From: Enterococcus phage 9183
Direction: 5' to 3' (one strand)
DNA: 64,000 nucleotides
Sequence record: MT939241.1
Each line of letters starts with the position of its first letter. Positions within the stretch are counted from its first letter, which is position 1. Made by a program: the position numbers and the translations under genes. The notes under the pieces were generated by a model. That model was not told where the DNA came from and did not search any database. It saw nothing but the letters and a program-made list of their open reading frames with translations. Shown here piece after piece: positions 1,982 through 41,962 of this stretch.

Positions 1982-3919
1982 TTGGAAGTTATGTTCTACT
2001 CACCACGAGAAAGTAAACAATATGCGGCTCACCTATGCTATAAGTTAGGAATTAAGTATACGATAGCAAAAAAGATAGCTGAAAATAGTACGGCAATGCA
2101 ATCATTATTCGATGCTTATCGTACAGGAGACGAAGCTGATTATGATGATGCTTGGAATAATTTGAAAGAGATCGATGGAATTGGCCCTAAACGTTCTACT
2201 CTTTATTTGGAAAAATATTTTGAAGACCCTTATCGTTCGATCAATTGGGAAATGTTCAATATCCTTCAAAAGTATCAACAAGTAACAGGTTGGACAGAAA
2301 ATAGAATGTATGATTTAGCTAGACGAATTGATGATCCTTCTAAAATTTGGTTAGTCTATCTTAACGATGAATCTATTACATTACCAATTGCTATTGAAAT
2401 TTATAAGATGACAACGAAAGATGAGCCTTATCTTCAGTCACAAACGATTCAATACTTTACGCAATACACAGATCTTAAAGCAAGTCAATTCCAACATAAT
2501 AATTTAACTTCACCCAAGTTCTTATTCAACAAAGATTTAAATGAACAATATAAATTATTTATGGAAATTGAAGATGTCGTAATGCTAAGAGAGACTGCGG
2601 AAGATTACGTTGCTATCTTAAAGTTTATGAGAGAAAATAAGAATGAAACTTTAGAACTTAGTCTTAATGATATTGATATTTCAGATTTTGGAGAAGATCA
2701 AGTCGTAGCTTTTGAAAAATTAAAAGATAAACGAGTAATGTTGCTTACAGGTTATGCAGGCACTGGTAAAACTTATATGCTTGATAAATATATATCTGCA
2801 TTGGCAGGACATAGAATTTATGCTTGTGCTTTAGCGGGTAAAGCTGTAAAGAACTTTGTTGATGCAATGTCAGTAGAGAGCATGAGAAAGATTAATCAAT
2901 CGACTATCGCAGGATTGCGTTACGTTCCAACTTATAAAGATTATTTTTCTAAATCGTCAGTCGTTATCGTCGATGAAGCAAGTATGATTTCAATGTCAGA
3001 CTTAGCTTATATTATTCGATTAATGAATGAAGATACGAAATTAATTTTGATCGGAGATATTAATCAATTGCCAGCGATTCAATTGGATGTTCTTAATTGG
3101 CTCGTTAGTGATAATGAATTAGAAAAGGTAACTCTTGATATTCCTAAACGACAAGCTGCAGACTCAGGTATCTTTAAGGATAGTATGTCTATCATTAATA
3201 AAGAGATCCCAGCTTTTGACACTGAAGAAAGTCAAGCTCGTATAGGACAAACATATGTTCAACAGATCATTGCTGAAAATATGGATGCAGATATTTTCTT
3301 GACGACAACGAATCAAGTTAAAGATACGATCAATAACATTAAAGCTGAAGAGGTTCGTCAAATTCCAAATCATGCTGTTTTTCAAAATAAGATTTATAAA
3401 GAGACAGTTGATTTTCATGAAGGCTATCAAATTATGATTGGAAAAAATAATGTTGACACAGGTTTAATGAACGGAGATATTTTCGTTATTAATTACGAAG
3501 GTCATTTAGTAGATCCTTATACTTTAGAAGCTGCAAAAGATTTAGATGGGAAAATCTTAAAGATTGGGGAAAATCGTGATTATCCTGATGCAGGCTTTGG
3601 AGGTAACACAAAAATATTGGATACGACTGCTCATAATGTTCAAATGGCATTTGCTATCACTACCCATAAGAGTCAAGGTAGTACAATGAATAAAGGTGTA
3701 ACTGTTATGGGTCCTGGACCATTAGCAACAAGAAATCTTTTATACACTGCAATCACTCGTTTTAAAGAGAAACATGTTTTATATTTACCTGATCGTGCAT
3801 TGTTGGAACAAATCTTACAAACTGGTGTTCAATATCAAAAATTAAGCAAAGATGAACAAGATATTTTGATCAAGAAAGTTGAACAAGAAAATGAAAAACA
3901 GGAGGAAGAAAATGAATAA
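1982..3919 (+). CDS. RecD2-like ATP-dependent helicase with N-terminal HhH region
   Basis: GYAGTGKT Walker A; VVIVDEASM; LILIGDINQLPAI; THKSQGST; LYTAITRFK. Confidence 0.75.
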   Translation: MEVMFYSPRESKQYAAHLCYKLGIKYTIAKKIAENSTAMQSLFDAYRTGDEADYDDAWNNLKEIDGIGPKRSTLYLEKYFEDPYRSINWEMFNILQKYQQVTGWTENRMYDLARRIDDPSKIWLVYLNDESITLPIAIEIYKMTTKDEPYLQSQTIQYFTQYTDLKASQFQHNNLTSPKFLFNKDLNEQYKLFMEIEDVVMLRETAEDYVAILKFMRENKNETLELSLNDIDISDFGEDQVVAFEKLKDKRVMLLTGYAGTGKTYMLDKYISALAGHRIYACALAGKAVKNFVDAMSVESMRKINQSTIAGLRYVPTYKDYFSKSSVVIVDEASMISMSDLAYIIRLMNEDTKLILIGDINQLPAIQLDVLNWLVSDNELEKVTLDIPKRQAADSGIFKDSMSIINKEIPAFDTEESQARIGQTYVQQIIAENMDADIFLTTTNQVKDTINNIKAEEVRQIPNHAVFQNKIYKETVDFHEGYQIMIGKNNVDTGLMNGDIFVINYEGHLVDPYTLEAAKDLDGKILKIGENRDYPDAGFGGNTKILDTTAHNVQMAFAITTHKSQGSTMNKGVTVMGPGPLATRNLLYTAITRFKEKHVLYLPDRALLEQILQTGVQYQKLSKDEQDILIKKVEQENEKQEEENE

Positions 3920-4460
3920 TTATTTTAGAATTGGAGACGTAGTAAAAATAATTGGACATGCAAATGATGAAAGCTATTATCATGTAGGCGCATTGCTTTA
4001 TAATTATGGTGAAATAATTGAACTTCACAAAAACGACGATTTTGCGAAGTTGAAGATGGAAAATGGAGAAGAAATAGTTTTAAATGTTCGTTGTCTTGAA
4101 AAAATGAATTTTCCAATGGTTGATGATAAACATAAAATTGCTTTTATCATGTATCCTGAAGAAGGAAAGAAAAATGAAGCTGGTGTGGCAATTAGTATGT
4201 CAATTTGCTATAAATTATTCAAAGTGAATAATACTTCACAACTTGATTTTATCGTTTCCAAAATAAAAGATAAATATTTAACAGGATCAAAATTATTATT
4301 TAACGTCTCATTACTTGACTCGGAGAAATCTGAAGACTTATTTTATTATGAAAATGGGTTTAAACCTACAGACGATCAATTGATCAGTTTTCTTGCTGAA
4401 AAAATAAAAGAGGAGCAAAAAGGTGTGGAAGATAAGATACGAAATAGAAGTTTTCATTGA
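3912..4460 (+). CDS. Hypothetical protein
   Basis: ORF with GGAGG RBS 7 nt upstream of the ATG; start chosen inside track ORF 3879..4460. Confidence 0.5.
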   Translation: MNNYFRIGDVVKIIGHANDESYYHVGALLYNYGEIIELHKNDDFAKLKMENGEEIVLNVRCLEKMNFPMVDDKHKIAFIMYPEEGKKNEAGVAISMSICYKLFKVNNTSQLDFIVSKIKDKYLTGSKLLFNVSLLDSEKSEDLFYYENGFKPTDDQLISFLAEKIKEEQKGVEDKIRNRSFH

Positions 4461-4525
4461 GACAATTTTTTGTATGATTGTTTTATTATTTGATGTAATT
4501 GCATATTATATAAAAAAGTTAAAGA

Positions 4526-4553
4526 GATAGGTTTACACTAACCTATCTTTTTT
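4526..4553 (+). terminator. Intrinsic terminator (8-bp stem gataggtt/aacctatc plus T-run) whose loop carries the -35 of the next promoter
   Basis: hairpin and TTTTTT read directly. Confidence 0.6.
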
Positions 4554-5386: not shown

Positions 5387-5790
5387 TGGCGAAAATGACT
5401 GTATGGGTAGGAGAACAAGATTTTTTAATTGGATCAAAAGTTGTTGCGATTAATAGTGATTTTAAAACTTTACAGGCAGGCAAAGAATATGACATAATTG
5501 ATATTGATGAAACAAATAATCAAATAGAACTTGAAGGTTTTGGTTGGATTAATGCAAAATATTTTATGCTTAGTAAAAACGATACTTCTCTTGAAAAAAT
5601 TAATGATGCTCGCGATAAGATGTTTGAATATGAAGATGAATATCTTAAATACTTAGCAAAGGTTGATATTTATCGCAATTTATTAAATGAAGCAAAAGCT
5701 AAAATGGATGATTTGCAAAATAAACATTTAAAAGCAAAAGAAGAATATTATGATATGATTAAAGAGGCTCAGGAGGCAATGATAAAATGA
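5386..5790 (+). CDS. Hypothetical protein (coiled-coil C-terminus)
   Basis: ORF, translationally coupled to its neighbours. Confidence 0.5.
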   Translation: MAKMTVWVGEQDFLIGSKVVAINSDFKTLQAGKEYDIIDIDETNNQIELEGFGWINAKYFMLSKNDTSLEKINDARDKMFEYEDEYLKYLAKVDIYRNLLNEAKAKMDDLQNKHLKAKEEYYDMIKEAQEAMIK

Positions 5791-7073
5791 AATGGTTTGA
5801 TATTTTAGAAGAGGTTGAAAATGCAAAAGGAAAAGAAAAAGTTGAAGTATTGAAAAAATATAGTAATGATTCATTGTTGCCTGATATTTTAAATTTCATT
5901 TATAATCCCCGTATCGTTACAGGAATTAGCAAAAAGAAAATGGGTAAAGAAATTGAAACATATGAAATTAAAATTGATCAAACCAACGAACGTGTATTAG
6001 CAATTATGGAATATTTAATTGAGCACAACACAGGAAAAGATGAAGACATTTCAACAGTAAAATCGCTTATTGAAAGCACAGACGATATGAAAGAACGTCA
6101 ATACTTAGAATCATTGGTAATTAAAGATATGCCAATAGGAATTAGTGCTACTTCAGTTAATAAAGTATGGAAGAAATTAATTCCTGTTTTTAAATTACAA
6201 AAAGGTCAATTATTCGAAGGTGAATTTGAAGGTGTTCAAGCTGTATCTCTTAAACTTGATGGAAATAGCGCAACTGTTTTTAATTTAGAAGATAAATCTT
6301 TTATGCTATCTCGTTCAGGAGCTATTATAGAAGGATTTGATCATATCTTAAAATATTATCGTGAAAATCTTCCAAAAGGCTTCGTTTATCAAGGGGAACT
6401 AATTGCGAAAAATTATCATAAAATGGGTCATGGTGAATTATTCCGTTATTCAAATGGAATCACAAATAGTAAGAAGGATGATGAAAAAGAAAATTTACAA
6501 CACATTATCTTTGATGTAATTGACGAGGTATCTTTTGAAAAAGGAAAATCATATATACCTTATATTGCACGACTTGATCAACTTAAAGATTATAATATTA
6601 AGACTTATGATCCATATGGAGATTCTTTTAATGAAGTTGAAATTGTTCCATTCTATGCATTCACAGATGACATTGATTTAATTATGTCTTTGGCAAAAGA
6701 GACAATCAATAATAATTTAGAAGGACTAATGATTTGTAAGGCAAGCTCAATTTATAAAAAAGGTAAACAAAAATGGCTGCAAAAAATCAAAGAATTTCAG
6801 ACATTAGATCTTGAAGTAATTGATCTAAAAGAACATGTTCGTGGTGGGAAAGTTGGATCATTGGTAGTAAATTATCATGGAGGAGAAGTCAATGTCGGAG
6901 GTATAAAAGATGAAGATCGTATCAAATGGTGGAACGAACCAAACACTATCATTGGAAAGATTGTTGAAGTTAAATTTTTCAGAGAGACAACTGACAAATT
7001 TGGAAACAAATCTCTTCGCTTCCCAACATTCGTTAGAGTCAGAGACGACAAATTTGAGGAGAGCTATGAATGA
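5787..7073 (+). CDS. ATP-dependent DNA (or RNA) ligase
   Basis: adenylation motif I SLKLDGNSA (KxDG); motif IV-like EGLMICK; motif V-like KWLQKIK. Confidence 0.65.
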   Translation: MKWFDILEEVENAKGKEKVEVLKKYSNDSLLPDILNFIYNPRIVTGISKKKMGKEIETYEIKIDQTNERVLAIMEYLIEHNTGKDEDISTVKSLIESTDDMKERQYLESLVIKDMPIGISATSVNKVWKKLIPVFKLQKGQLFEGEFEGVQAVSLKLDGNSATVFNLEDKSFMLSRSGAIIEGFDHILKYYRENLPKGFVYQGELIAKNYHKMGHGELFRYSNGITNSKKDDEKENLQHIIFDVIDEVSFEKGKSYIPYIARLDQLKDYNIKTYDPYGDSFNEVEIVPFYAFTDDIDLIMSLAKETINNNLEGLMICKASSIYKKGKQKWLQKIKEFQTLDLEVIDLKEHVRGGKVGSLVVNYHGGEVNVGGIKDEDRIKWWNEPNTIIGKIVEVKFFRETTDKFGNKSLRFPTFVRVRDDKFEESYE

Positions 7074-7258
7074 AAAATAAAAATGTTTACATTGTCGATG
7101 TAATGAATAAAGGATATAAATGGGAAAAATGGTGTGTCGTAACTTCTTATGGCACTGCCATTATGGTAAGAGATCATTTAAGGTCTCGTAACATTTATAA
7201 AGACGTTCGTATAGAAACTTTAGAGTTAGACAACACCCATTTAAAAATTAATGAATAA
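7070..7258 (+). CDS. Small hypothetical protein
   Basis: ORF coupled to the ligase stop. Confidence 0.4.
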   Translation: MKNKNVYIVDVMNKGYKWEKWCVVTSYGTAIMVRDHLRSRNIYKDVRIETLELDNTHLKINE

Positions 7259-7353
7259 CATAATATGTTTTTAACTCTCTTAAATGAGACCTTATGCAAC
7301 ATTCTTTGATGAAATAGAACAAAATATTCGTATAGAAAGAGAAGGTAAACTGT

Positions 7354-7545
7354 ATGAAAAATTTTAGTGCAGCCATGAAACGCGAATTTAATTATTTGAT
7401 GAAGAATAGCAAACTTAGTGATTGGGCAAATAATAATTTTACTCCTTGGCAAATTGAAAAATTATATGAGGCTCGTGAAGCAAAAATTGATGGAGAAAAG
7501 ACAGCAAGTGGAATGGAGGCTATTATTAAACATGGAAGAAAGTGA
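7354..7545 (+). CDS. Small hypothetical protein
   Basis: ORF with RBS gagaagg. Confidence 0.4.
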   Translation: MKNFSAAMKREFNYLMKNSKLSDWANNNFTPWQIEKLYEAREAKIDGEKTASGMEAIIKHGRK

Positions 7546-7747
7546 AATTGAATTAAAATATGGAGATCGTTTTTATATAAGCGAAGGCGAAGAAAATCTA
7601 ACAATTGAAATCACCGATGAAAGTGGTATTTACATTAGTAAAGGATATGTCACAGTTGAACAAGCAGAAGAAATGGTTAAAGCCTTACAAGAAAAAATTG
7701 ACCTATTAAAGAAAGGAAGACGAAAAGTTGGAAAAAGACGTAAGTAG
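7532..7747 (+). CDS. Small hypothetical protein
   Basis: ATG start chosen inside track ORF 7418..7747 to avoid a long overlap with 7354..7545. Confidence 0.35.
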   Translation: MEESEIELKYGDRFYISEGEENLTIEITDESGIYISKGYVTVEQAEEMVKALQEKIDLLKKGRRKVGKRRK

Positions 7748-7919
7748 ATTTAAGATTTTTTATCCTAATAATGAATGGGTTGCTGTAATGGCGACAAATG
7801 ACGAAATTTTTGATGCTTTTCAGAAAAAGGATGCAGTAATGCAATTTAAGAACGCTTTAAACGAAAATGTCTTTGTTGACTTCAGTAAAGTTCTTTTTAT
7901 CATTAATACGACCCGATAA
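7728..7919 (+). CDS. Small hypothetical protein
   Basis: ORF with TTG start and RBS aaggaag. Confidence 0.35.
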   Translation: MEKDVSRFKIFYPNNEWVAVMATNDEIFDAFQKKDAVMQFKNALNENVFVDFSKVLFIINTTR

Positions 7920-7993
7920 GGCCTCTAAATGAATCCTATCTAAAAGTAAGATATTTACAACGAATAAAATTCAGATTTTATTCTATAAATAAT

Positions 7994-8035
7994 GCATAAT
8001 ATGTAGATGAATCTATTTACATATTATGCTTTTTA
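7994..8035 (+). terminator. Intrinsic terminator (12-bp stem gcataatatgta/tacatattatgc plus TTTTT) embedding the -35 of the next promoter
   Basis: perfect inverted repeat followed by a T-run. Confidence 0.65.
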
Positions 8036-8044
8036 ATTTATAAT
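8016..8044 (+). promoter_or_regulatory. Consensus-like promoter (TTTACA, 17 nt spacer, TATAAT)
   Basis: read directly. Confidence 0.55.
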
Positions 8045-8087
8045 AAACCATATAATCAAACAACTAATAAAGAAAGAGGTTTATAAC

Positions 8088-8294
8088 ATGACAACATTAC
8101 AATCAAACAACGAATATTTCTTTCCACCAATTAAAAATCCTTTTAATACGGAGGAGGAATTTAGAGAGGAGAAAAGAAAAACTCAAGAGATATTTGATTC
8201 TCTAGATATTGAAGATAGCCTTCAATCAATTCAAAGCGATTATTACGGAGAAAAACTTACGTGGTTAGAACAATTAGAATATGAATATATTTAA
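8088..8294 (+). CDS. Small acidic hypothetical protein
   Basis: ORF with RBS aagagg. Confidence 0.5.
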   Translation: MTTLQSNNEYFFPPIKNPFNTEEEFREEKRKTQEIFDSLDIEDSLQSIQSDYYGEKLTWLEQLEYEYI

Positions 8295-8301
8295 ATTAAA
8301 A

Positions 8302-8335
8302 AATATCTATTACGAAAGTGATAGATATTTTTTTA
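8302..8335 (+). terminator. Intrinsic terminator (aatatctat/atagatatt stem plus T-run)
   Basis: read directly. Confidence 0.6.
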
Positions 8336-8374
8336 CAAACTTCTTCATTTATTTCACAAAATATAGAATAAAAT

Positions 8375-8403
8375 TGTTTACATATTGTGCTTTATTAGTT
8401 ATA
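8375..8403 (+). promoter_or_regulatory. Consensus phage promoter
   Basis: TTTACA, 17-nt spacer, TATAAT. Confidence 0.6.
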
Positions 8404-8445
8404 ATTAATATATAATAAATAAACAAATGAAAGAAGGAATTTAAA

Positions 8446-8703
8446 ATGACAAAAGAAAAAGAACTAATGAACGAATTGATTAAATTGGTAAAGGACAATG
8501 GTTTTTATCTTAGTGAAAAAGAAATTAATGAAGCTAAAAAATACGATGTAGAACTTTTTATTTGCCAAACACCTGAAAATGATGGAGGATGGACAAAAGA
8601 TGTTTCAGAAGTATTTTCACTTGAAGATTGTGAAAAATTTCATTCATTATGTAAAGAATTAAATATTTTAACCCCTTGGGTAGTTATTGTTGATGAATTA
8701 TAA
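8446..8703 (+). CDS. Small hypothetical protein
   Basis: ORF with RBS aaggaa. Confidence 0.5.
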   Translation: MTKEKELMNELIKLVKDNGFYLSEKEINEAKKYDVELFICQTPENDGGWTKDVSEVFSLEDCEKFHSLCKELNILTPWVVIVDEL

Positions 8704-8713
8704 AAATTATAAA

Positions 8714-8742
8714 ATAGGGATTTAATCCCTATTTTTTTTTTT
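8714..8742 (+). terminator. Intrinsic terminator (atagggat/atccctat stem plus T11)
   Basis: read directly. Confidence 0.7.
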
Positions 8743-8761
8743 GCTTATTTTACATAAAAAG

Positions 8762-8789
8762 TTTACATATTTTTATATGATGATATAAT
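8762..8789 (+). promoter_or_regulatory. Consensus phage promoter; near-identical copy at 40784..40811
   Basis: gtttacatatttttatatgatgatataat. Confidence 0.65.
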
Positions 8790-8824
8790 ATAAAGGAATT
8801 ATATAAAAGAAAGAGGTATTAGAA

Positions 8825-9364
8825 TTGAATATTGCTGTTTTTATGGGCTCAAGATTTGGAGATAAAGCTATCTATAAAAGAGTGGCTAAGGAGACAGGAC
8901 GTCTTATTGCTGAAAGTGGTAACACTCTCGTTTATGGTGGATCTGTTTCAGGTTTAATGGGCTCAGTCGCTAAAAGTACGAAAAAACATGGAGGAAAAGT
9001 TTTAGGCATTTATCCTAAAGATCATTTTGAAGATGAACTCCCATTATATGACGTTGATGAATTTATTGAGGTTGAAAACATGGATGAAAGAAAACGACTT
9101 TTGATTGATAAAGCCGATACTTATATCATTCTTCCTGGAGGCACAGGAACATTAGAGGAGTTCGCACAATTAGTATGTGAAATGGTAATAGGTCTTACAA
9201 CTTGGAAGACAATTTACATTATGAACACTGATGGATATTACGATGGATTAATTACGCAATTAGTAAGATTCATTGATGATGGCTTTTCTGATTTTGATCA
9301 CCTTAGTGATAACATTTTTGTCGCTGAAGATATTGAAGAAATCTTCAATGACTTGAAAAAATAA
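8825..9364 (+). CDS. LOG-family protein (nucleotide 5'-monophosphate N-glycosidase / 'lysine decarboxylase-like' fold)
   Basis: LOG signature ILPGGTGTLEEF; N-terminus matches the family pattern (VFMGS). Confidence 0.65.
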   Translation: MNIAVFMGSRFGDKAIYKRVAKETGRLIAESGNTLVYGGSVSGLMGSVAKSTKKHGGKVLGIYPKDHFEDELPLYDVDEFIEVENMDERKRLLIDKADTYIILPGGTGTLEEFAQLVCEMVIGLTTWKTIYIMNTDGYYDGLITQLVRFIDDGFSDFDHLSDNIFVAEDIEEIFNDLKK

Positions 9365-9378
9365 TAGGAGGAATTTGA

Positions 9379-10026
9379 ATGAAATTTAAAGAAAAAGATT
9401 TAGTGAGAGTGGATTTAGGTGGAGAAATTAAGCGCGTAGGTAGAATTGATGAATTTGATCCTGAAGATCAGCATTTTCCTTTTGCAATTGATTTTCCTAA
9501 ACGATTAGATGAAGATAATTATTCAAAAGATTGTGGTTGGTACAGTGAATGGGACATTGAAGAAATTAAAAATGAATTGAATGTTTATCTTGCAGGCCCT
9601 TTCTTCTCTGAAAAACAAGTTGAAATCGTTAAAGAATTACGTAAAGCCTTAGAAGAAAATGATACTATTGGCGAAGTTTTTGTTCCTATGGAGCATCAAA
9701 TGAACGATGGTGAATTAGAAGAATTTACTGCTCCTTGGGCACGTGAAGTTGCGAAAAATGATTACATTCATGTTCGTGAAGCTGATATTGTTGTCGCAAT
9801 CGTTGATTTTGATGGTGAAGATATGGATTCAGGAACAGCAGTTGAAATTGGATATGCATATGCATTAGGCAAACCCGTATTTCTATATCACCGAAACGAT
9901 CATAACATTATGGTGAATTTAATGGCGACTGAAGTTGCTCAAGCATATTTCACAGATGCACAACAGGTTAAAGAATATGATTTTAAAGAAATGAAACATA
10001 TTCCTTTTACTGGAAATTATCGTTAA
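9379..10026 (+). CDS. Nucleoside 2-deoxyribosyltransferase family protein (NDT / dNMP N-glycosidase fold) with ~65-aa N-terminal extension
   Basis: VYLAGPFF motif and catalytic-Glu motif GTAVEIGYAYALGKPV, matching the Lactobacillus NDT family. Confidence 0.65.
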   Translation: MKFKEKDLVRVDLGGEIKRVGRIDEFDPEDQHFPFAIDFPKRLDEDNYSKDCGWYSEWDIEEIKNELNVYLAGPFFSEKQVEIVKELRKALEENDTIGEVFVPMEHQMNDGELEEFTAPWAREVAKNDYIHVREADIVVAIVDFDGEDMDSGTAVEIGYAYALGKPVFLYHRNDHNIMVNLMATEVAQAYFTDAQQVKEYDFKEMKHIPFTGNYR

Positions 10027-10029
10027 TGT

Positions 10030-10055
10030 TAGGAGTCTTTTGACTCCTTTCTTTT
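10030..10055 (+). terminator. Intrinsic terminator (aggagtc/gactcct stem plus T-run)
   Basis: read directly. Confidence 0.6.
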
Positions 10056-10074
10056 AAAATAAATCATAATATCG

Positions 10075-10103
10075 TTTACACTAAGATGTGTACTTGATAT
10101 AAT
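10075..10103 (+). promoter_or_regulatory. Consensus phage promoter
   Basis: TTTACA, 17-nt spacer, TGATATAAT. Confidence 0.65.
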
Positions 10104-10142
10104 ATTAAAGTAAAAATTTATAAACGGAAGGAAATTCCAAAT

Positions 10143-10991
10143 ATGAGAGAAAAGGAGACTGGACCATTGATCACAATTGAAGCTCCAATTGGAGCAGGTA
10201 AGTCAACTCTTACCAAACTGTTATCAGATATCCTAGGTTCAACACCCGTCTACGAACCAATCGCAGACAATGAATTGCTTGACAAATTTTATGAAAGTAA
10301 GGAAAAATATGGATTCGTATTTCAAATTAGTATGATCTCCAAACGATTTGACCTTATCAAAAAAGGATTAGTACAACGCAATTCGGTGTTAGATCGATCA
10401 ATTTATGGAGATCGTGTATTCGTTGATCTTTTAGTAAAACGAGGAGAAATTGATCCAATTTCTGCTAAAGTTTATTATGATCTTTTAGATACAATGCTTG
10501 AAGAATTGGAATACATTCCTTCAAAAACACCTGACTTAATGGTGTACATTCATTTGCCACTAGAATTAGAATTAGAACGAATTGAAAAACGTGGGCGCGA
10601 TTTTGAGCAGCTTGACGCCGATCCAGGTTTGCTTGAATATTATACACAACACAATGAAATGTATAATGATTGGTTCATGAAATTTGACAAGTGTCCTAAA
10701 TTGGTGATTGATGCAACGAAATACGATTTCGCCAATAATGAAGAAGATGCTAAAGAAGTTCTAGCTTTAATTCTAGCGAAGCTCGTTGAGGTAGGAGCTT
10801 TATCATTTAAAGAATGCGTAATTGCTTTTTGTAAATTAAACGGAGGAAATCCGAAAGAAACAGCAATTAATGCATATAACGCAGTTCAAACACAAATGAA
10901 TGGTAATTTACCTTACCATGAATTATCGTCAATCTTTGACAATAAATTATTCACAATTGAAGAATTACAAAATTACATTGATCAAAAATAG
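10143..10991 (+). CDS. Deoxynucleoside kinase (dAK/dGK/dCK family)
   Basis: P-loop IEAPIGAGKST; DRS-type motif VLDRSIYGDRVF; lid arginine motif RIEKRGRDFE. Confidence 0.75.
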   Translation: MREKETGPLITIEAPIGAGKSTLTKLLSDILGSTPVYEPIADNELLDKFYESKEKYGFVFQISMISKRFDLIKKGLVQRNSVLDRSIYGDRVFVDLLVKRGEIDPISAKVYYDLLDTMLEELEYIPSKTPDLMVYIHLPLELELERIEKRGRDFEQLDADPGLLEYYTQHNEMYNDWFMKFDKCPKLVIDATKYDFANNEEDAKEVLALILAKLVEVGALSFKECVIAFCKLNGGNPKETAINAYNAVQTQMNGNLPYHELSSIFDNKLFTIEELQNYIDQK

Positions 10992-11014
10992 AAAGAAAGA
11001 AGGAATTTATTTAT

Positions 11015-11779
11015 ATGGAAGCTACAGGACTTAAAGGAATTACTCGTAAAGAGATCTTAGGAAATATTAAAGAATTATTCACCGTTTCTTATTACAAAGA
11101 AGGCTTATCGAATTGGATGCCAATTACTAAGGTAGCAGCTTTAATTGGTTTTGCAATTATCATTGGAACAGGCCTACCACATGGTTTCGCTATTACGAAT
11201 ATCATTTCGATCATTTCAGGCTTAATTGGTTACACGTGTGTTTTAGCTATCACAAATGGCAAACGAATTAATGGTTTACTTGGTTTCATTTCTGCAATTG
11301 GTATCGGAGGAATGGCAATTCATGCTGGAAACCCAGCTGATGCAGTGATGCAGCTTGCTTATCTTCTTGCTCTTGACATTCCTGTGATTGTCTTTGGTCA
11401 CCGTTGGACAAATGCAAAAATCAAGACGTTTGATAAAGGCGCATTAAAGATCATTTTAATCGTAGGCGTGATCGGTTTTGCGGCAATGTACTCAATGGAT
11501 GCATTCTGGCTACACACTCCGCGTCCTATCTTAGACGCTTTCGGAGCCACGATTGGTTTCATTGGATCTGCATTAATGCTAGGTAAATATTCTACACAAT
11601 ATTTCTTCTGGAATTTCCAAGGAATTATGAGTATTGCTCTATGGGGTATGACAGCAATGCAAGGCGACGCCAACTGGGTGTTATTCGCAACTTATATGAT
11701 GTACTTGATGAACTCAATGATCGGTGCATTCCATTCTCCTTGGTCTGAAGCACGTAAACAAAAACATTTAGAAAAATAA
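11015..11779 (+). CDS. pnuC: PnuC-family membrane transporter (nicotinamide riboside / deoxynucleoside-type)
   Basis: ~7 predicted TM helices; 254 aa; W-N-...-W block; sits in an operon with deoxynucleoside kinase and NDT. Confidence 0.5.
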   Translation: MEATGLKGITRKEILGNIKELFTVSYYKEGLSNWMPITKVAALIGFAIIIGTGLPHGFAITNIISIISGLIGYTCVLAITNGKRINGLLGFISAIGIGGMAIHAGNPADAVMQLAYLLALDIPVIVFGHRWTNAKIKTFDKGALKIILIVGVIGFAAMYSMDAFWLHTPRPILDAFGATIGFIGSALMLGKYSTQYFFWNFQGIMSIALWGMTAMQGDANWVLFATYMMYLMNSMIGAFHSPWSEARKQKHLEK

Positions 11780-11792
11780 AAAGATAAAATGA

Positions 11793-11815
11793 ACTCCACT
11801 TCGGTGGAGTTTTTA
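11793..11815 (+). terminator. Hairpin with UUCG loop (actccac-ttcg-gtggagt) plus TTTT
   Basis: read directly. Confidence 0.5.
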
Positions 11816-11831
11816 ATGAAAGGAAAGAGAC

Positions 11832-12071
11832 ATGAAAGTTATCATATATTCAAGGAATAAATGTATGCAATGTAAAATGATGAAAAACTACTTCACTGGA
11901 TTAAAAATACCTTTTCAAGAGGTAAATGTAGACGAGGATGAGGTAGGCATGAACGAATTAAAAATGTTAGGATTTCAATCAGTGCCTGTGACACATATAG
12001 TAAATGAAGAAGGTCACCATTGGATCAAAGGTTTTGCACCACATAAAGTTTCTAAATTATTGAAATTTTGA
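11832..12071 (+). CDS. nrdH: NrdH-like glutaredoxin (CxxC redoxin)
   Basis: N-terminal CMQC motif in an ~80-aa thioredoxin fold; C-terminal motif HxWxGF. Confidence 0.6.
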   Translation: MKVIIYSRNKCMQCKMMKNYFTGLKIPFQEVNVDEDEVGMNELKMLGFQSVPVTHIVNEEGHHWIKGFAPHKVSKLLKF

Positions 12072-12073
12072 GG

Positions 12074-12100
12074 CAGTAAGTTTACACTTACTGTCTTTTT
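12074..12100 (+). terminator. Terminator (cagtaag/cttactg stem) whose loop is the TTTACA -35 of the next promoter
   Basis: read directly; T-run tcttttttt. Confidence 0.6.
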
Positions 12101-12109
12101 TGATATAAT
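12081..12109 (+). promoter_or_regulatory. Consensus phage promoter
   Basis: TTTACA, 17-nt spacer, TGATATAAT. Confidence 0.65.
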
Positions 12110-28003: not shown

Positions 28004-28522
28004 ATGAGTATTAATATTGTTTTAGATGGTCCTAAAGCATGTGGAAAAAGCACAATTGCGAATATGATCATTAATGAATTAGGAAATTGGAAATATATTC
28101 ATTCGGATTCACAAACGAAAAATGATTTAGAATATCATTTAGATCTTTTAAATCAAGGTGAAAATACGGTATTAGATCGTTTTTCATTCGGTGAGGTAAT
28201 TTATTCGAAAGTATATGATCGTAAATGTAAACTTACGCCTAGTGAATTTTTGAAGACAGTGACTAGAGAAAATACGATTTACGTCGTTCTTTACTCAAGC
28301 TCAATGATTCTTTTAGAAGAAAGAATAGTAAGGCGTGGAAGAAAAACTGAAGACGAAGAATTAAGTCTCGTTTCGTCTAGCAACAGTTTATTCATTAGGT
28401 GTGCTACTTGGATGCAAGATCAACCTTACTCAGTAAGAAAAAGATACTTAACTTTTGACGTAGCAAAATACACCGCTGAAGAAATCTTTGAAAAGATAAA
28501 AGAAAAAATGGAGGAATTTTAA
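28004..28522 (+). CDS. dNMP kinase, thymidylate-kinase-like P-loop
   Basis: VLDGPKACGKST P-loop; VLDRF motif; ~170 aa. Confidence 0.6.
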   Translation: MSINIVLDGPKACGKSTIANMIINELGNWKYIHSDSQTKNDLEYHLDLLNQGENTVLDRFSFGEVIYSKVYDRKCKLTPSEFLKTVTRENTIYVVLYSSSMILLEERIVRRGRKTEDEELSLVSSSNSLFIRCATWMQDQPYSVRKRYLTFDVAKYTAEEIFEKIKEKMEEF

Positions 28523-29356
28523 ATGCAATCATTTGATAATTTAAATGCAGCTTGGGCATGGTTCGCAACAAAAGCTTTAACAGGAAAAAGAGTTGCGGGC
28601 ACAACCGAATTAAATAATGTATCTTTCACGCTTGAAAATATTAATGAAAATTTACTTACAATTCGTGAAAACTTTTCATTATCATATTATTTAGGAGAAG
28701 GAATTTGGTATGGAGCAGGCTCAAATTCTATGGAGTTCATTTCAAGATTTGGAAAAATTTGGGAAAAATTAAGTGATGATGGTGTTACAAATGAAAGTGC
28801 CTATGGATATATTCTAAAGAAAAAATATGGCTTTGATCAAATTGAAAAAATGGTTGAACTTTTAAGTAAAGATCCAAACAGTCGTCGCGCAGTGATGAAC
28901 ATTAATTTCGCTCGTAAAAATGTAATTGAAACGAATGATGAACAATGCACTATTGCTTTGCAGCTTTTGCTTCGTGATGGTGAGTTAAATATGACAGGAA
29001 TTATGCGTTCAAATGATTTATGGACGGGAACACCGTATGATATTTTCTACTTCACGGAAATTCAAAAATATATCGCTAATCGTTTAGGTGTTCAATATGG
29101 AACTTATACTCATTTCGTTACTTCATTGCATATTTATGATCGTGATAAAACGAAAGTAAGTAAATCGATTTTGAATTACTTAAATGATGAAAAAGTTGAT
29201 GTTACTATTGATGGTCAACTTTTATTAGAAAGCGCACCTGACTTATATAAGATAATAGGTAAGATTATAGATCCTAAAGAAGCCAAGAAAAAAGCAATTG
29301 AATTAGCAAAAATAAGAAATATCGTTGGAGGTAAAGACATTGAAAATCAAAATTAA
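28523..29356 (+). CDS. Thymidylate-synthase-fold pyrimidine hydroxymethylase / methylase homolog (dCMP- or dUMP-hydroxymethylase-like)
   Basis: RRAVMN; nucleophile block EQCTIALQLL; MRSND; SLHIYDRD; Asp in PYDIF where ThyA has Asn (PFNIA). Confidence 0.65.
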   Translation: MQSFDNLNAAWAWFATKALTGKRVAGTTELNNVSFTLENINENLLTIRENFSLSYYLGEGIWYGAGSNSMEFISRFGKIWEKLSDDGVTNESAYGYILKKKYGFDQIEKMVELLSKDPNSRRAVMNINFARKNVIETNDEQCTIALQLLLRDGELNMTGIMRSNDLWTGTPYDIFYFTEIQKYIANRLGVQYGTYTHFVTSLHIYDRDKTKVSKSILNYLNDEKVDVTIDGQLLLESAPDLYKIIGKIIDPKEAKKKAIELAKIRNIVGGKDIENQN

Positions 29357-29756
29357 AATGTTTGAGGATGATCCATTATTTAAACCAAAAAGAGCACATT
29401 ACAATGATGCAGGAGCTGATGTTCGATCAACTGTAGATGCTGTTATCTTACCAGGTCAAACTGTAAAAATTCCATTAGGATTTGGATTGGAATTACCCGA
29501 TGGTTACATGGGTGTAATGATGAGTCGATCAGGCCTCGCCTCTAAAGGTCTTGTTTCACAAAATGCTCCTGTTGACTCAGGTTATAAAGGTCAAGTACAC
29601 GCTATCTTGACAAATACGACAAATTTATCTATTACAATCGATCGCTTTACTCGTGTTGCACAATTAGTGATCGTTCCAATTATGGTGGCAGATTTCGTTG
29701 AAGAATTTGGAAATGAAAGAACTTCCGACGGTTTTGGAAGCACAGGTATTAAATAA
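29334..29756 (+). CDS. dut: dUTPase-family protein (canonical length)
   Basis: motifs AGADV, RSGLASKG, VDSGYKGQV, SDGFGSTG. Confidence 0.75.
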   Translation, partial: KTLKIKIKMFEDDPLFKPKRAHYNDAGADVRSTVDAVILPGQTVKIPLGFGLELPDGYMGVMMSRSGLASKGLVSQNAPVDSGYKGQVHAILTNTTNLSITIDRFTRVAQLVIVPIMVADFVEEFGNERTSDGFGSTGIK

Positions 29757-30100
29757 TGATACTTGTCTTTGATTTAGATGGAACGATTTGTGAGGAGAAA
29801 CCGAAAGGTACTCCTTACGCCGCTTATGCGGACGTTCAACCAAAAAGAAAAATGATTGAAAAGATTAAAGAATATCATGATGCAGGTCATAAAATCATTA
29901 TTTATACTGCTCGTCATATGGTTTCTACCAATGGTGATTTAAAAATGATTGAGGAACGTGTTGGTAAAATCACTCGCAATTGGTTAGAAAAAAATAATGT
30001 TCCTTATGATGAATTAATTTTTGGTAAACCATATGGGGATATGTACATTGATGATAAAGCAATGCAGCTTGATCAATTCTTATTGGAGGAAATGCTATGA
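29756..30100 (+). CDS. Small HAD-superfamily phosphatase
   Basis: DLDGT motif I; T/S motif II; GKPYGDMYIDDKA motifs III/IV. Confidence 0.6.
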   Translation: MILVFDLDGTICEEKPKGTPYAAYADVQPKRKMIEKIKEYHDAGHKIIIYTARHMVSTNGDLKMIEERVGKITRNWLEKNNVPYDELIFGKPYGDMYIDDKAMQLDQFLLEEML

Positions 30101-31731
30101 TTAATAATATCGCTCTTATTCCTGCAGCAGGTAGAGGAACGCGGATGAAATCAGTCACGGATAAATATCCAAAGGCAATGATTCCACATTTAGGAAAACC
30201 AATTATAGGCCACCAAATTGAATATTTGATAAAAGAAGGCTTTGATAAGGTAGTTATCGTTGTAGGTTATCAGAAAGACATTCTAATGCAATACGTGATT
30301 AAAAATTATGCGGATAAAATTCGTATTTTATTCGCAAATCAAGACGAATTAGATGGACTTGCGACAGCGATTCTTGAAGGAATCAACGCCTTAAACGAAA
30401 AAGACTTATTATTATCAAATCTCACAATTATTCTAGGAGACATTTTACCTCAAGAAGAAATGCCTTATTTTAATGGAGAAAGTTTCATTTGCTATAAAGA
30501 GGTTGATGACTGGCAACGTTGGTGCATGGTTAAAGAACTTTATTCAGGTCGTTTATGTTTTTATGATAAACCAATTGATAAGCCAAACACCAATAAAGCT
30601 TTAATGGGAATTTACATGTTTAATGATATCGATCTATTAAAAGAAAGCATCGAACATATCAAAGAAAAAAATATTCGAATCAATGGGGAATTTCAATTAA
30701 GCTCTGCAATGAATATCTATAATGAACATGTTAACATTAATTTGAAAAAATATGAAAAATTCATTGACTTCGGTCAAGCTGAAGACATTAGTGCCGCAAG
30801 AAAAAATGCTGCTCGTTACTTCAATGATATTTTAATTGAAGATGAGGTAGTAACAAAAAGAAGCACTGATAAAAGTAAAATGTACGACGAATCAATGTGG
30901 TACCAATTAGCCAAAAATTACTTAGGTGATTATTTACCTGAATGTTATGGCATGACAAAAGAAAATGATGGATATAAAATGAGTCGCATTAAGCTGCCTT
31001 CTCTCCAAGAACAATTCGTCTTTGGAACATTAAGTAGAGTAGAAGCTTACCAATTGATGATTGACTTAATGAATTATTTCAAAGACACGAAAAAATACGG
31101 GACTAAGCGCCCAAATTTGATTAAAGCAAATCAAGATATGTTTATTAATAAGACAAGAGAACGTATTGAAAAAATCAAAAATATGTTCGATGAAAAATAT
31201 TATGTAATTAATGGAGAAATTAAAGAAAATCCAATTTTTATATTTGAAGAAAAAATCGTTCCTCGTTTAGAGGAAATTATTGCCGATGATAATTATGCCG
31301 CAATGATTCACGGTGATTTATTCTTTGGAAATATGATGTACGATCCAAAAGGAGAAGATGGGCAACGTTTGAAAATCATTGATCCTCGTGGCAAATATGG
31401 AGAAGATAATCGTCTTATGGGTGATATGCGATATGATTATGCTAAATTAAATCATTCAATTTCAGGATATTATGATTTCATTATTAATGGGCTTTATTAT
31501 TTGGAAGATAATGGAACTGTGATCAATTATAACTTTTACGATAGTGAAAAGCAGGTAGAAGTACAAGGTTTATTTGAAGATTTACTTTCATTGTCTCATA
31601 TGAAAAAGAAAGATATTGATATGATCACGGGTATCTTGTTCCTATCGATGATTCCGCTTCACAAAGAGAATAAAAATAATCAAATCATTCAATTTGCACA
31701 AGCAATTAAATTTTTAGAATTAGGAGCATGA
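30097..31731 (+). CDS. Bifunctional sugar-phosphate nucleotidyltransferase (N-terminal) / APH-ChoK-fold small-molecule kinase (C-terminal)
   Basis: N-terminus LIPAAGRGTRMKS...GKP (GlmU/RmlA/LicC-type NTase); C-terminus IHGDLFFGNMMYD...IIDPRG (HGDxxxxN catalytic loop plus D-x-R/G). Confidence 0.6.
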   Translation: MINNIALIPAAGRGTRMKSVTDKYPKAMIPHLGKPIIGHQIEYLIKEGFDKVVIVVGYQKDILMQYVIKNYADKIRILFANQDELDGLATAILEGINALNEKDLLLSNLTIILGDILPQEEMPYFNGESFICYKEVDDWQRWCMVKELYSGRLCFYDKPIDKPNTNKALMGIYMFNDIDLLKESIEHIKEKNIRINGEFQLSSAMNIYNEHVNINLKKYEKFIDFGQAEDISAARKNAARYFNDILIEDEVVTKRSTDKSKMYDESMWYQLAKNYLGDYLPECYGMTKENDGYKMSRIKLPSLQEQFVFGTLSRVEAYQLMIDLMNYFKDTKKYGTKRPNLIKANQDMFINKTRERIEKIKNMFDEKYYVINGEIKENPIFIFEEKIVPRLEEIIADDNYAAMIHGDLFFGNMMYDPKGEDGQRLKIIDPRGKYGEDNRLMGDMRYDYAKLNHSISGYYDFIINGLYYLEDNGTVINYNFYDSEKQVEVQGLFEDLLSLSHMKKKDIDMITGILFLSMIPLHKENKNNQIIQFAQAIKFLELGA

Positions 31732-31735
31732 TAAA

Positions 31736-32956
31736 ATGGGTAAAACAATCGTTTTTGGAAAATTAGGAAGAACTATACGATTCAACCGCAAGAATTGGAA
31801 ATCAGGTGCTGGCAATAATGAGCCGGCAACATTGCTTTCAGCTTTAGCTAATGCAAATCCTCAAAATAAATATATTATCATTGGTAGAAGTGATTTCTCT
31901 CGTTGTGATGAAGAAACGATAAACTATTGGTTTAAATATGATAATGTTGAAGATGCTTGGGCAGACTATGACAAGAAAAAACATGATCTTTATAATTTCC
32001 TTTATGAAAAATATAAAGATACTCATATTGATTATGGGATTATCAATGGAGGTATCACAGGTAACACAAACTCTCCAGGCTGCTTTATTAAATATGATAA
32101 AGATGGAAATTCAACTGGAGAAAAATTACGTGTGTTAGATGCTATGGCTATTTACGTTGGCCCAATCATTTGCTTATTTAACAAACGAAAAATAAAATGG
32201 GTAAACTTCCATGCAGATGCTCGTCAGTTTCCTATTAAAGGTAAAGATGTTTTCCAACAGCCTGAACTTACAATTGGGACAAGAAATATTGATCGAGTGA
32301 AAATGACATATAAAGATTATGATGATCAAACTGATATTCCTAGAGAAATGAGTATGAGATATGGAATGACTGAAGCTCTCCTTTTACTTGACCCTGAATA
32401 TAAAGATTTTCCTAAAGTTGAAAAAGATATTAAAGTAGGATTCTTCTTCCATAATTATGAAAAAATCAAAAATCGTACTCATGAATTACTTAATTATATT
32501 GATCAGTTTGGAGAAGATGAAATTTCAGTTTATGGCAAATGGAAAGGTTTTGAGGATCAACCTAAATTTAAAGGTGAATGTACCTTTGATGAGATGCAAG
32601 AAATTTTACCTCGGATCAAATATACACTTTGCTATCCTATCGTTAAAGGTGATATTAGTGCAAAATGGATTGAAGCTGTAAGAGCTGGTATTATTCCTTT
32701 CTTCGATGAAAAATATGATGAAAATCGTTTGCTCGTTGATATTCACAACGTTCCTTCATTCTTATATGTATCTTCACCTGAAGATATGAAAGAAAAAATT
32801 AACCTGCTTGAAAAAGATCCTCACATTTACAAATCTATTCTTGATTTATTGACTGATCGTTTAGAATATCTTAAAGAAAATGTTCTTTCAATTTATGAAT
32901 GTGAAATTGAGGATGCCATTGAAGGCGGCGTTGAAAGATACGATAAAATTTATTAA
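31736..32956 (+). CDS. Putative GT-B glycosyltransferase, T4 beta-glucosyltransferase-like C-terminal motif
   Basis: KWIEAVRAGIIPFFDEKYD resembles the GT-B EAxAxGxP(V/I) motif and the T4 BGT block RVWETMASDAVMLIDEEFD (recalled from memory); ~400 aa. Confidence 0.4.
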   Translation: MGKTIVFGKLGRTIRFNRKNWKSGAGNNEPATLLSALANANPQNKYIIIGRSDFSRCDEETINYWFKYDNVEDAWADYDKKKHDLYNFLYEKYKDTHIDYGIINGGITGNTNSPGCFIKYDKDGNSTGEKLRVLDAMAIYVGPIICLFNKRKIKWVNFHADARQFPIKGKDVFQQPELTIGTRNIDRVKMTYKDYDDQTDIPREMSMRYGMTEALLLLDPEYKDFPKVEKDIKVGFFFHNYEKIKNRTHELLNYIDQFGEDEISVYGKWKGFEDQPKFKGECTFDEMQEILPRIKYTLCYPIVKGDISAKWIEAVRAGIIPFFDEKYDENRLLVDIHNVPSFLYVSSPEDMKEKINLLEKDPHIYKSILDLLTDRLEYLKENVLSIYECEIEDAIEGGVERYDKIY

Positions 32957-32966
32957 AAATAAAAAT

Positions 32967-32997
32967 CACGGGCGAATAAGTTTACTATTTGCCCGTG
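32967..32997 (+). other. 7-bp-stem hairpin (cacgggc/gcccgtg) with the next promoter's -35 (TTTACT) in its 17-nt loop; no T-run
   Basis: read directly. Confidence 0.5.
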
Positions 32998-33009
32998 TAA
33001 TGATATAAT
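32981..33009 (+). promoter_or_regulatory. Promoter variant (TTTACT, 17 nt spacer, TGATATAAT)
   Basis: read directly. Confidence 0.55.
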
Positions 33010-33042
33010 ATAAAAGTAAAAATTATAAAGGATGGTATTTAT

Positions 33043-33567
33043 ATGAGTACGACTTTTAAAGTTAAAAAACACGAAGATAATATCATTCACCTTTATTCTG
33101 ATGGAGGCTGTCGTTCAACGGCAAAGAAAGGTGAAAAAATTAAAGACACCGATAAATGTGCTTACGCTTTCTTCTTAAAACAAGGAGGACACGAAAAACT
33201 TGATGGATTTGCTTCTTATGGAAAGACAAATAATAATCAAGAAATAATGGGATTGCTCATGGGGCTAAGAGCAATTAAACGTCCTGAGTTTCCAGTTATT
33301 GCTTATCTTGATAGCGCTTACGTTGTTAACTGTCTTCAAGCAGGTTGGTGGCGTAAGTGGGAGCAAAATGGGTGGACGAAGAAAGGTGGCCTTGCAAATG
33401 CTGAAGAATGGAAAGCATTAATTAAAGAACTTAAAAGATTTCCATTTTTCTCCATTGAAAAGGTGAAAGGTCATTCAGGTAATGCTGATTATAATGATCT
33501 AGTCGACAAGCATTTAAACAAATTAATGGATGAACTTGAGGAGAAAGGTAAAGGTAATGTATTATGA
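33043..33567 (+). CDS. rnhA: Ribonuclease H
   Basis: RNase HI fold motifs LYSDGG, NQEIMG, YLDSAYV. Confidence 0.65.
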   Translation: MSTTFKVKKHEDNIIHLYSDGGCRSTAKKGEKIKDTDKCAYAFFLKQGGHEKLDGFASYGKTNNNQEIMGLLMGLRAIKRPEFPVIAYLDSAYVVNCLQAGWWRKWEQNGWTKKGGLANAEEWKALIKELKRFPFFSIEKVKGHSGNADYNDLVDKHLNKLMDELEEKGKGNVL

Positions 33568-34535: not shown

Positions 34536-34779
34536 AATGTATATTTTTGATCAATGTTTCGTCGATCATGCAAATTATTTAGAGACAAGAGTTGGAGAAG
34601 GTTATAAGGTTTATCAATTCCAACAGTCAGGTGGAAATCCTCCATTTAGTCCTATTTATTCTATTAAATTTAGAAAGTTGCTTAAATATAAATGGTACAA
34701 TAATTTTCATGGTTGGTTATTTAAATATAGGAGAAAACGTTTTGTTGAAAAAGAATTAGGGAGGAAATACGTTGGCTAA
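34525..34779 (+). CDS. Small hypothetical protein
   Basis: ORF fills the gap, coupled to its neighbours. Confidence 0.4.
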   Translation: MHIEMYIFDQCFVDHANYLETRVGEGYKVYQFQQSGGNPPFSPIYSIKFRKLLKYKWYNNFHGWLFKYRRKRFVEKELGRKYVG

Positions 34780-41743: not shown

Positions 41744-41962
41744 ATGAATTTTAGTCAAGCTTTTGATACCGTCAGTCAACGAGAAGGAACGTTTATGCGT
41801 TTGCCTCAATGGAAAGAGGACGTAAAAATTCGTGCTCAATTTCCTGATGAATACAGTAAAATGAGTCATCCTTACCTATATGTGGAATCGCGTTTTGGTA
41901 ATGTACCTTGGATTCCAACACAGGTTGAAATGTTTTCAAATAAATGGGAGGTAGGAATTTAA
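41744..41962 (+). CDS. Small hypothetical protein
   Basis: ORF with RBS aggaga. Confidence 0.45.
   Translation: MNFSQAFDTVSQREGTFMRLPQWKEDVKIRAQFPDEYSKMSHPYLYVESRFGNVPWIPTQVEMFSNKWEVGI

Follow-up and report, generated by a model that had tools for sequence, protein, structure and literature searches.

The window analyzed here is a 64,000-nucleotide (nt) stretch of DNA from Enterococcus phage 9183 (MT939241.1), and positions 8762 to 12071 of it carry a run of five genes that an earlier, model-made reading of the letters (the sequence-only reading) had interpreted as a deoxynucleoside salvage operon. We confirmed five consecutive plus-strand open reading frames (ORFs) where that reading had placed them: a LOG/TIGR00730-family gene (8825-9364; 179 amino acids [aa], TTG start), a nucleoside 2-deoxyribosyltransferase (NDT) gene (9379-10026; 215 aa), a deoxynucleoside kinase (dNK) gene of the non-TK1 dAK/dGK/dCK family (10143-10991; 282 aa), a gene for a Pnu-family (PnuC-like) membrane facilitator (11015-11779; 254 aa), and a gene for an NrdH-like redoxin of glutaredoxin fold with a CMQC active site (11832-12071; 79 aa). 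The five family assignments were upheld, with matches to Pfam, PHROGs, and NCBIfam profiles far above chance, and the motifs that had been quoted are present, namely, PGGTGTLEE in the LOG protein and YLAGPFF and VEIGYA in the NDT. The interpretation that we favor, and consider reasonably probable, is a two-cassette early module that supplies deoxynucleoside monophosphates (dNMPs) by salvage, independently of ribonucleotide reductase (RNR). The phage appears to have no RNR of its own.

The phage is an Enterococcus siphophage of the genus Denvervirus. Its DNA from 8700 to 12100 matches that of Enterococcus phage Planchet (Andrewesvirinae, Denvervirus; 86.5 kb) end to end with 91% identity, and the amino acid identity to Planchet is ~90 to 94% for the three proteins measured (LOG, NDT, and PnuC-like). 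The same five-gene order is found in VPE25, VFW, nattely, vipetofem, and Planchet, all Andrewesvirinae, with promoters at the matching three positions. Vipetofemvirus (nattely and vipetofem) differs in having two additional small ORFs within the module, and amino acid identities there range from 38% to 87%; at the DNA level, the transporter gene alone is recognizable in the region in phages of the sister genus (nattely and vB_EfaS_140). This phage is not alone in having the module, and the VPE25 orthologues have borne essentially these gene names since 2016. These orthologues (orf_15, 17, 18, 19, and 21) are transcribed, with expression highest mostly at 10 min (Table S2A, PMC7064774).

The sequence-only reading had a single promoter driving all five genes. 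The coordinate at which it began, 8762, does fall on a strong promoter-like site: promoter P1 (TTTACA-16-TGATATAAT; 8762-8789, plus strand) stands before the LOG gene, downstream of a plus-strand terminator-like hairpin with an 11-bp stem followed by 11 T residues (8711-8735; -11.4 kcal/mol, z -4.05), which would close the preceding unit. However, a second promoter copy, P2 (TTTACA-17-TGATATAAT; 10075-10103, plus strand), as good as P1, stands before the dNK gene. It sits in the 116-nt gap between the NDT and dNK genes, 27 nt after another plus-strand terminator-like hairpin followed by UUCUUUU (10031-10048; -11.9 kcal/mol, z -4.5), which would mark the end of a LOG-NDT unit and whose sequence is identical in Planchet. 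P1 and P2 are both kept in Planchet and nattely, and so are all three promoter positions, in the latter case alongside proteins of 38 to 87% identity. As the NDT-dNK gap holds both P2 and a hairpin, and as a second genus shows the same layout, two transcription units are predicted rather than one operon: LOG-NDT (cassette A) and dNK-PnuC-NrdH (cassette B). The second unit would be closed by a plus-strand terminator with a 12-bp stem followed by six T residues (12070-12097; -14.8 kcal/mol, z -5.4), the loop of which holds the -35 hexamer of the promoter that follows (12081-12109). Separating the PnuC-like gene from the NrdH-like gene, a GC-rich plus-strand hairpin with a UUCG loop and a weak T-tail (11792-11811; -12.8 kcal/mol, z -3.4) could serve as a partial terminator or stabilizer. 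Exact copies of TTTACA-N16/17-TATAAT (often TGATATAAT) occur 24 times in the window, between positions 1920 and 52169 and all on the plus strand, where 0.1 would be expected. Some terminator loops contain the -35 hexamer of the following promoter and use the T-run as its spacer, giving compact terminator-promoter units such as that at 12070-12109.

The LOG protein scores 146.7 bits against TIGR00730 (cut-off 96.35) and 100.5 bits against PF03641 (cut-off 27; E-value 1.1e-28), and its best match in the Protein Data Bank is 1t35, YvdD of B. subtilis (1.5e-30). Its motifs comprise PGGTGTLEE (aa 104-112), MDERK (aa 86-90), which is the MxxRK segment with the catalytic Arg, and YGGSVSGLMG (aa 37-46), the GGxxGxMG nucleotide-binding loop; the key residues are invariant in the homologue alignment. 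The protein fails NF058542, the equivalog model of the phosphoribohydrolase that acts on cytokinin riboside 5'-monophosphate (104 bits against a cut-off of 300), and is therefore not to be called cytokinin activating. It is instead predicted to be a nucleoside 5'-monophosphate N-glycosidase (phosphoribohydrolase), as the LOG/PpnN family converts nucleoside 5'-monophosphates to base plus ribose 5-phosphate (PMC6717881). The Planchet record labels this protein "DprA-like," which derives from a weak PHROG match (2.3e-06) and is superseded by the LOG match.

Members of the NDT superfamily may be transferases or hydrolases, and the sequence-only reading had allowed that the phage enzyme might destroy canonical dNMPs. 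The protein matches PF05014 at 92 bits (cut-off 28.8; 3.8e-26). Among solved structures, the type II transferase from Bacillus psychrosaccharolyticus comes closest (6evs; 1.3e-21, 37% identity), followed by Lactobacillus NDT and PDT enzymes, whereas the nucleotide hydrolases MilB and BcmB match at 1e-3 to 1e-4 only. Y70, D128, D150, E156, and N180 align with Y7, D72, D92, E98, and N123 of L. leichmannii NDT, and P103 aligns with the "transferase proline." Across 34 homologues, the catalytic residues E156 (the nucleophile), Y70, and D128 are invariant; in the pair that binds the 5'-OH, D150 is likewise invariant and N180 is present in at least 90% of the sequences. A study from 2026 on DmtZ, an NDT-family phage enzyme that hydrolyzes dAMP and transfers deoxyribose 5-phosphate, reports that the hydrolases are without the Asp/Asn pair that holds the 5'-OH in transferases (PMC12884076). 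DmtZ, DNPH1/Rcl, MilB, and BcmB share the superfamily, the fold, and the catalytic Glu/Tyr with the phage NDT but have other residues in place of the Asp/Asn 5'-OH binders, which makes room for a 5'-phosphate, whereas the phage protein retains the pair, and its scores to this group in both structure and sequence are much weaker than those to true transferases. An AlphaFold (AF2) model (pLDDT 85.7, pTM 0.87) compared by Foldseek gave a target TM of 0.89 and a root mean square deviation of 1.8 Å to 6evs, with DNPH1 (E-value 4e-5) and BcmB far lower. A hydrolase-type phosphate pocket, with small uncharged residues replacing Asp/Asn, was not found in the phage NDT. As the pair for a free 5'-OH is kept, the protein appears to be a transferase acting on nucleosides rather than a hydrolase of dNMPs. 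Sequence and model together make this assignment a confident one, and the destruction of canonical dNMPs is disfavored.

The NDT domain occupies residues 66 to 215. Residues 1 to 65 (window 9379-9575) are confidently predicted to form a five-strand beta domain, which among the homologues compared is confined to Andrewesvirinae proteins; a Foldseek search with the full model returned NDT-superfamily matches only and none for this domain. The kinase has an extension of its own, a C-terminal tail of ~65 aa (aa 215-282, window 10785-10991) common to phage dNKs only (KSY1, 9181, and vB_OCPT_Ben), such that the KSY1 dNK aligns over aa 9 to 279 (49% identity) and bacterial dNKs over aa 2 to 217 only. 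Possible roles of these phage-only extensions include protein-protein docking. The assignment as a dNK is, to judge from the profile and motifs, highly probable: PF01712 is matched at 144.8 bits (3.7e-42) over profile positions 1 to 202 of 203, the solved relatives are 8puu (1.5e-21) and 2jaq (4e-16), and the P-loop GAGKST, LDRS, FVFQ with the base-binding Gln, and the lid RIEKRGRDFE all align with both structures. A separate TK1-type thymidine kinase, encoded on the plus strand at 34772-35380 (PF00265, 5.6e-33), complements the dNK, from which we infer a purine/dC specificity for the latter.

The fourth protein is, by its profile scores, a bona fide member of the Pnu family (PF04973, 75.2 bits, cut-off 27.3, 8e-21; TIGR01528, 74.9 bits, cut-off 42.45; PHROG 1880, 2.5e-53). 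Its sole solved homologue is the nicotinamide riboside (NR) transporter 4qtn, and this match is weak (3.5e-6), with QYFFWNFQG standing against QWALWIVVN of 4qtn. Pnu proteins are facilitators that need a cytoplasmic kinase to trap their substrate, as with PnuC/NadR and PnuT. The phage gene likewise lies directly downstream of the kinase for its presumed substrate, and since Pnu facilitators depend on a trapping kinase, the dNK-Pnu pairing fits deoxynucleoside uptake. A Pnu subfamily for deoxynucleosides, PnuN, has been predicted (Rodionov and Gelfand 2005, cited in PMC7749635). A genomic or regulatory link to deoxynucleotide metabolism, in bacteria to the NrdR regulon, would mark a PnuN protein. 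No NrdR box was found for the phage gene: no 11-12/16 match to the NrdR operator consensus ACACWATATATWGTGT lies at a relevant place ahead of either phage promoter or ahead of three PnuC-like homologues from bacteria, and the database label "NrdR-regulated" is therefore without support here.

Further evidence on the substrate comes from the company that the gene keeps. PnuC-like genes occur in 107 phage records, nearly all with Lactobacillales hosts, and in six phage lineages they are associated with dNK, NDT, NrdH, or NrdD. In four of these (Andrewesvirinae, Schiekvirus, Chopinvirus KSY1, and phage 9181) the gene is directly downstream of dNK, and Schiekvirus vB_OCPT_Ben has NrdD-dNK-PnuC-NrdH, in the order seen in this phage. 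The fifth lineage, Lb338-1, has dGK-NDT-endonuclease-PnuC and the sixth, ATCC 8014-B2, PnuC..Trx-NDT, while two further lineages carry the PnuC-like gene alone. From its association with dNK, we put the chances that the transporter carries deoxynucleosides, as a PnuN-type protein would, at about even. Our literature search found no paper on a PnuC-like transporter, phage, and deoxynucleosides together, and no experimental demonstration of the predicted PnuN-type function. The PnuC-like protein is also 87% identical between Denvervirus and Vipetofemvirus, against 38 to 61% for its four neighbors, and its gene has a GC content of 0.39 compared with 0.31 to 0.34 in the neighboring genes, which suggests that this gene alone was recently exchanged or that it is under far stronger constraint.

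The redoxin matches the Glutaredoxin family (PF00462, 1.4e-12) and E. coli NrdH (1h75, 4e-6). As its best specific model, TIGR02194, gives 75.9 bits, just below the cut-off of 85.75, "NrdH-like" rather than NrdH is the defensible name on these scores. CMQC matches the C-[VM]-Q-C pattern, while the WSGFRP motif is degenerate (W-IK-GFAP), with one inserted residue and Ala in place of Arg. No class Ib reductase or other RNR was recognized in the window as a partner, none is annotated in Planchet, and all window ORFs longer than 300 aa correspond to non-RNR proteins of Planchet; the NrdH-like protein would therefore have to use the host enzyme.

For bacterial genomes, we took one per species, used a 7-sequence NDT alignment as the seed, and searched the best 80 of 508 NDT loci with the five phage proteins. 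Among these 80 loci, those of Enterococcus sp. DIV0660C and ZJ1622 have adjacent LOG-NDT-dNK genes arranged as in the phage, E. hermanniensis has a LOG-NDT pair, and three Lactococcus genomes have dNK-LOG-NDT, the LOG gene being split in one of the three. The remaining ~70 have NDT alone, and none of the 80 has PnuC or NrdH near NDT. In the chromosomal LOG-NDT-dNK operons of Enterococcus and Lactococcus the three families are adjacent or overlapping, as in the phage, with amino acid identities of 41 to 48%, but NDT is without the N-terminal domain and dNK without the tail, and within 6 kb neither a PnuC-like nor an NrdH gene is present. A gene for a Bmp nucleoside-binding lipoprotein adjoins the corresponding dNK-LOG-NDT locus of L. 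lactis. In the operon of Lactococcus cremoris HP, LOG is in two pieces (locus positions 5438-5575 and 5580-5975), probably a frameshifted pseudogene in a dairy strain. From the phage collection rather than the scan comes OR846875.1, recorded as "Listeria phage LM 4-11-1" (11.4 kb, unannotated), which has an overlapping LOG-NDT-dNK operon at 7173-8905; with its Rex-like regulator, phosphotransferase system components, class II aldolase, and LacI-type regulator, this record evidently comes from a bacterial chromosome.

The closest matches of the phage NDT are the Lactococcus proteins of dNK-LOG-NDT loci (47 to 48%), whereas the phage dNK scores 281 bits against that of phage KSY1 and ~190 bits against the operon dNKs. 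This difference points to separate origins of the two cassettes: cassette A appears to have been taken from an operon of host type, and cassette B resembles a mobile cassette of phages, with P2 at the junction of the two. Among IMG/VR viral contigs, the full five-gene set is found in Andrewesvirinae only, and five other viral LOG matches have no NDT, dNK, PnuC, or NrdH nearby. The logic of base exchange followed by phosphorylation is that of Lactobacillus-type salvage (NDT plus dAK/dGK/dCK), and the phage NDT keeps the full catalytic set; the phage version differs in being phage encoded, in the NDT N-terminal beta domain and the dNK C-terminal tail, and in being joined to LOG, Pnu, and redoxin genes. 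A literature search returned no paper linking LOG with NDT and none describing the recurrent LOG-NDT-dNK operon, and we found no description in the literature of the two-cassette architecture or of the phage-only NDT and dNK extensions.

Outside the module, the window encodes other enzymes of nucleotide metabolism, among them a guanylate kinase and two dUTPase-like proteins. A plus-strand gene for a small P-loop (d)NMP-kinase-like protein (28004-28522) is followed by one for a thymidylate-synthase homologue (28523-29356, plus strand), the best solved relative of which is MilA (3.5e-28). The homologue has Arg, Ser, and Asp at the positions of MilA K133, A176, and D186, residues that mark deoxy- and cytosine-specific enzymes (PMC5175136), and is therefore predicted to be a dCMP hydroxymethylase. 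The DNA of VPE25 and VFW is bisulfite resistant, MspI resistant, and PvuRts1I sensitive, which was interpreted as glucosyl-hydroxymethylcytosine (PMC4999554).

These elements can be combined into a pathway, every substrate and every flux of which we infer. The Pnu-type facilitator would let deoxynucleosides diffuse into the cell, with host DNA breakdown as an alternative source, and the dNK would trap those entering as dNMPs; such facilitated diffusion with kinase trapping within cassette B is the logic known for PnuC/NadR and PnuT. NDT would shift deoxyribose from any available deoxynucleoside to another free base. LOG may hydrolyze ribonucleoside monophosphates to base and ribose 5-phosphate and thereby furnish acceptor bases for NDT, although we advance this base-supplying role only tentatively. 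The dNK and the thymidine kinase would commit the products to the dNMP pool, from which phage and host NMP kinases would continue, and dCMP would feed the phage hydroxymethylase. The host GC content is ~37 to 38%, and as the window, at 32% GC, lies below it, base rebalancing would be useful; the phage guanylate kinase and small NMP kinase may join the module in fitting deoxynucleosides to the phage genome. For L. plantarum phages, base rebalancing has been argued on similar lines (PMC6669764). The NrdH-like protein may pass electrons to the host class Ib reductase and stimulate it, a role for which we see roughly equal odds either way. More broadly, LOG-NDT-dNK might be a three-enzyme "base-swap" salvage pathway of some lactic acid bacteria that phages have captured and joined to a Pnu deoxynucleoside importer, through which a phage could recompose its dNTP pools without a reductase of its own; we regard this wider reading as rather doubtful. 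The import, base exchange, and phosphorylation that the sequence-only reading had envisaged are thus supported, while its single operon and its dNMP destruction are not.

Several observations weigh against salvage as proposed. The functions of all five proteins are predictions, and the LOG substrate could differ from the one suggested. As LOG adjoins NDT in just 6 of the 80 best bacterial NDT loci, LOG-NDT coupling is restricted to few lineages. The redoxin scores just under the curated NrdH threshold, with no reductase recognized in the phage as its partner, and the VPE25 expression z-scores are noisy across replicates (PMC7064774). The transporter passes as an NR/nicotinamide mononucleotide (NMN) transporter in annotations; its nearest bacterial homologues (47 to 50% identity; Fructobacillus and Weissella) sit alone, and the neighborhoods of the closest bacterial genes (Weissella, Fructobacillus, and Companilactobacillus) are uninformative, with no NrdR boxes in the three checked.

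The transporter is also where the first rival departs: the PnuC-like protein would import NR and the neighboring P-loop kinase would trap it as NMN for NAD+ salvage, by which NAD+ could be kept up or restored, for example, against NAD-depleting defences. That the protein exceeds the TIGR01528 "nicotinamide riboside transporter PnuC" cut-off and has an NR transporter as its sole solved homologue speaks for this, as do papers on L. plantarum phages that place PnuC-like genes in NAD salvage. Schiekvirus phages with the matching cassette also have a NadR gene, 2 kb from it, which keeps the NR alternative alive. The neighboring kinase, however, is a full-length dNK rather than a NadR- or Nrk-type enzyme; the resemblance to 4qtn is weak, segment included; and the recurrent partners of PnuC-like genes in phages are dNK, NDT, NrdH, and NrdD. 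The Planchet annotation lists no NMN adenylyltransferase, NadR, or Nampt, ten ORFs with no function annotated in Planchet have no Pfam match, and no NAD-salvage gene was recognized in the window. We judge NAD+ salvage unlikely. Less likely again is a counter-defence role, in which the enzymology is unchanged and the module refills dNTP pools emptied by dCTP deaminase- or dGTPase-type immunity. The genes are early, the module is RNR independent, the cassette has spread horizontally among unrelated Lactobacillales phages, and the conservation of the PnuC-like protein between genera exceeds that of its neighbors, all of which would support such a function only indirectly. But no sign of defence or anti-defence turned up: PADLOC gave no match for LOG, NDT, PnuC, or NrdH and only weak P-loop matches for the kinase, bacterial LOG-NDT-dNK operons stand in housekeeping contexts, and no data tie these phages to dNTP-depleting defences.

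We give the lowest probability, a very small one, to an N-glycosidase module tied to DNA hypermodification, where LOG and NDT would clear canonical (d)NMPs or build a modified nucleotide via a free base. It draws on the hydroxymethylcytosine-type DNA of this phage family, on the likeness of the thymidylate-synthase-like enzyme to MilA, whose natural partner MilB is an NDT-family N-glycosidase, and on the dAMP hydrolysis and deoxyribose 5-phosphate transfer by DmtZ (PMC12884076). In the free-base version, hydroxymethyl-CMP would yield 5-hydroxymethylcytosine through LOG acting as MilB does, NDT would convert this to the deoxynucleoside, and dNK would produce hydroxymethyl-dCMP. The Arg and Ser of the hydroxymethylase at the ribo-preference positions of MilA, K133 and A176, make it a dCMP-type enzyme, for which no free-base detour is needed, and this route is rejected. 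The hydroxymethylase gene moreover lies 18 kb off, in a T4-like cluster of its own with a kinase and a dUTPase-like enzyme, and the NDT keeps the Asp/Asn pair missing in DmtZ and DNPH1, with matches of 1e-3 to 1e-4 to MilB/BcmB against 1e-21 to a true NDT. LOG-NDT-dNK is also chromosomal in bacteria, where DNA hypermodification would not be expected.

If the salvage interpretation is correct, it would explain how 86-kb Enterococcus phages feed the replication of AT-rich, hydroxymethylcytosine-containing genomes without an annotated RNR, in a group that includes VPE25, a widely used model and therapy candidate. It would also give bacterial LOG proteins a housekeeping role beyond cytokinin biology, and dNK plus the PnuC-like protein would offer a compact genetic system in which to test the long-predicted deoxynucleoside specificity of one Pnu subfamily. 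All components are from known families, and NDT and dNK in phages have already been discussed as nucleotide recycling; what results is a sound annotation of auxiliary metabolic genes of an ordinary sort rather than a discovery.

Elsewhere, gene order in the window is that of Planchet throughout, with one exception. The 1.08-kb glycosyltransferase gene PLANC_101, which in Planchet lies between the ligase gene and the salvage module, is missing from the window (at ~7250), and the difference is a clean indel (Planchet locus 3472-4550) amid DNA of 92 to 94% identity. The hypermodification cluster at 28004-34535 encodes, besides the P-loop kinase and dCMP hydroxymethylase, a dUTPase-like protein, an HAD phosphatase, a 544-aa fusion of sugar-nucleotidyltransferase and kinase, and two glycosyltransferase-like proteins. 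As VPE25 has a T4-like beta-glucosyltransferase at the corresponding position, Denvervirus may attach a different sugar to hydroxymethylcytosine. The second dUTPase-family protein (41944-42705; 253 aa), encoded near the guanylate kinase gene (42995-43594), is extended at its N terminus by ~130 aa that match no Pfam family.

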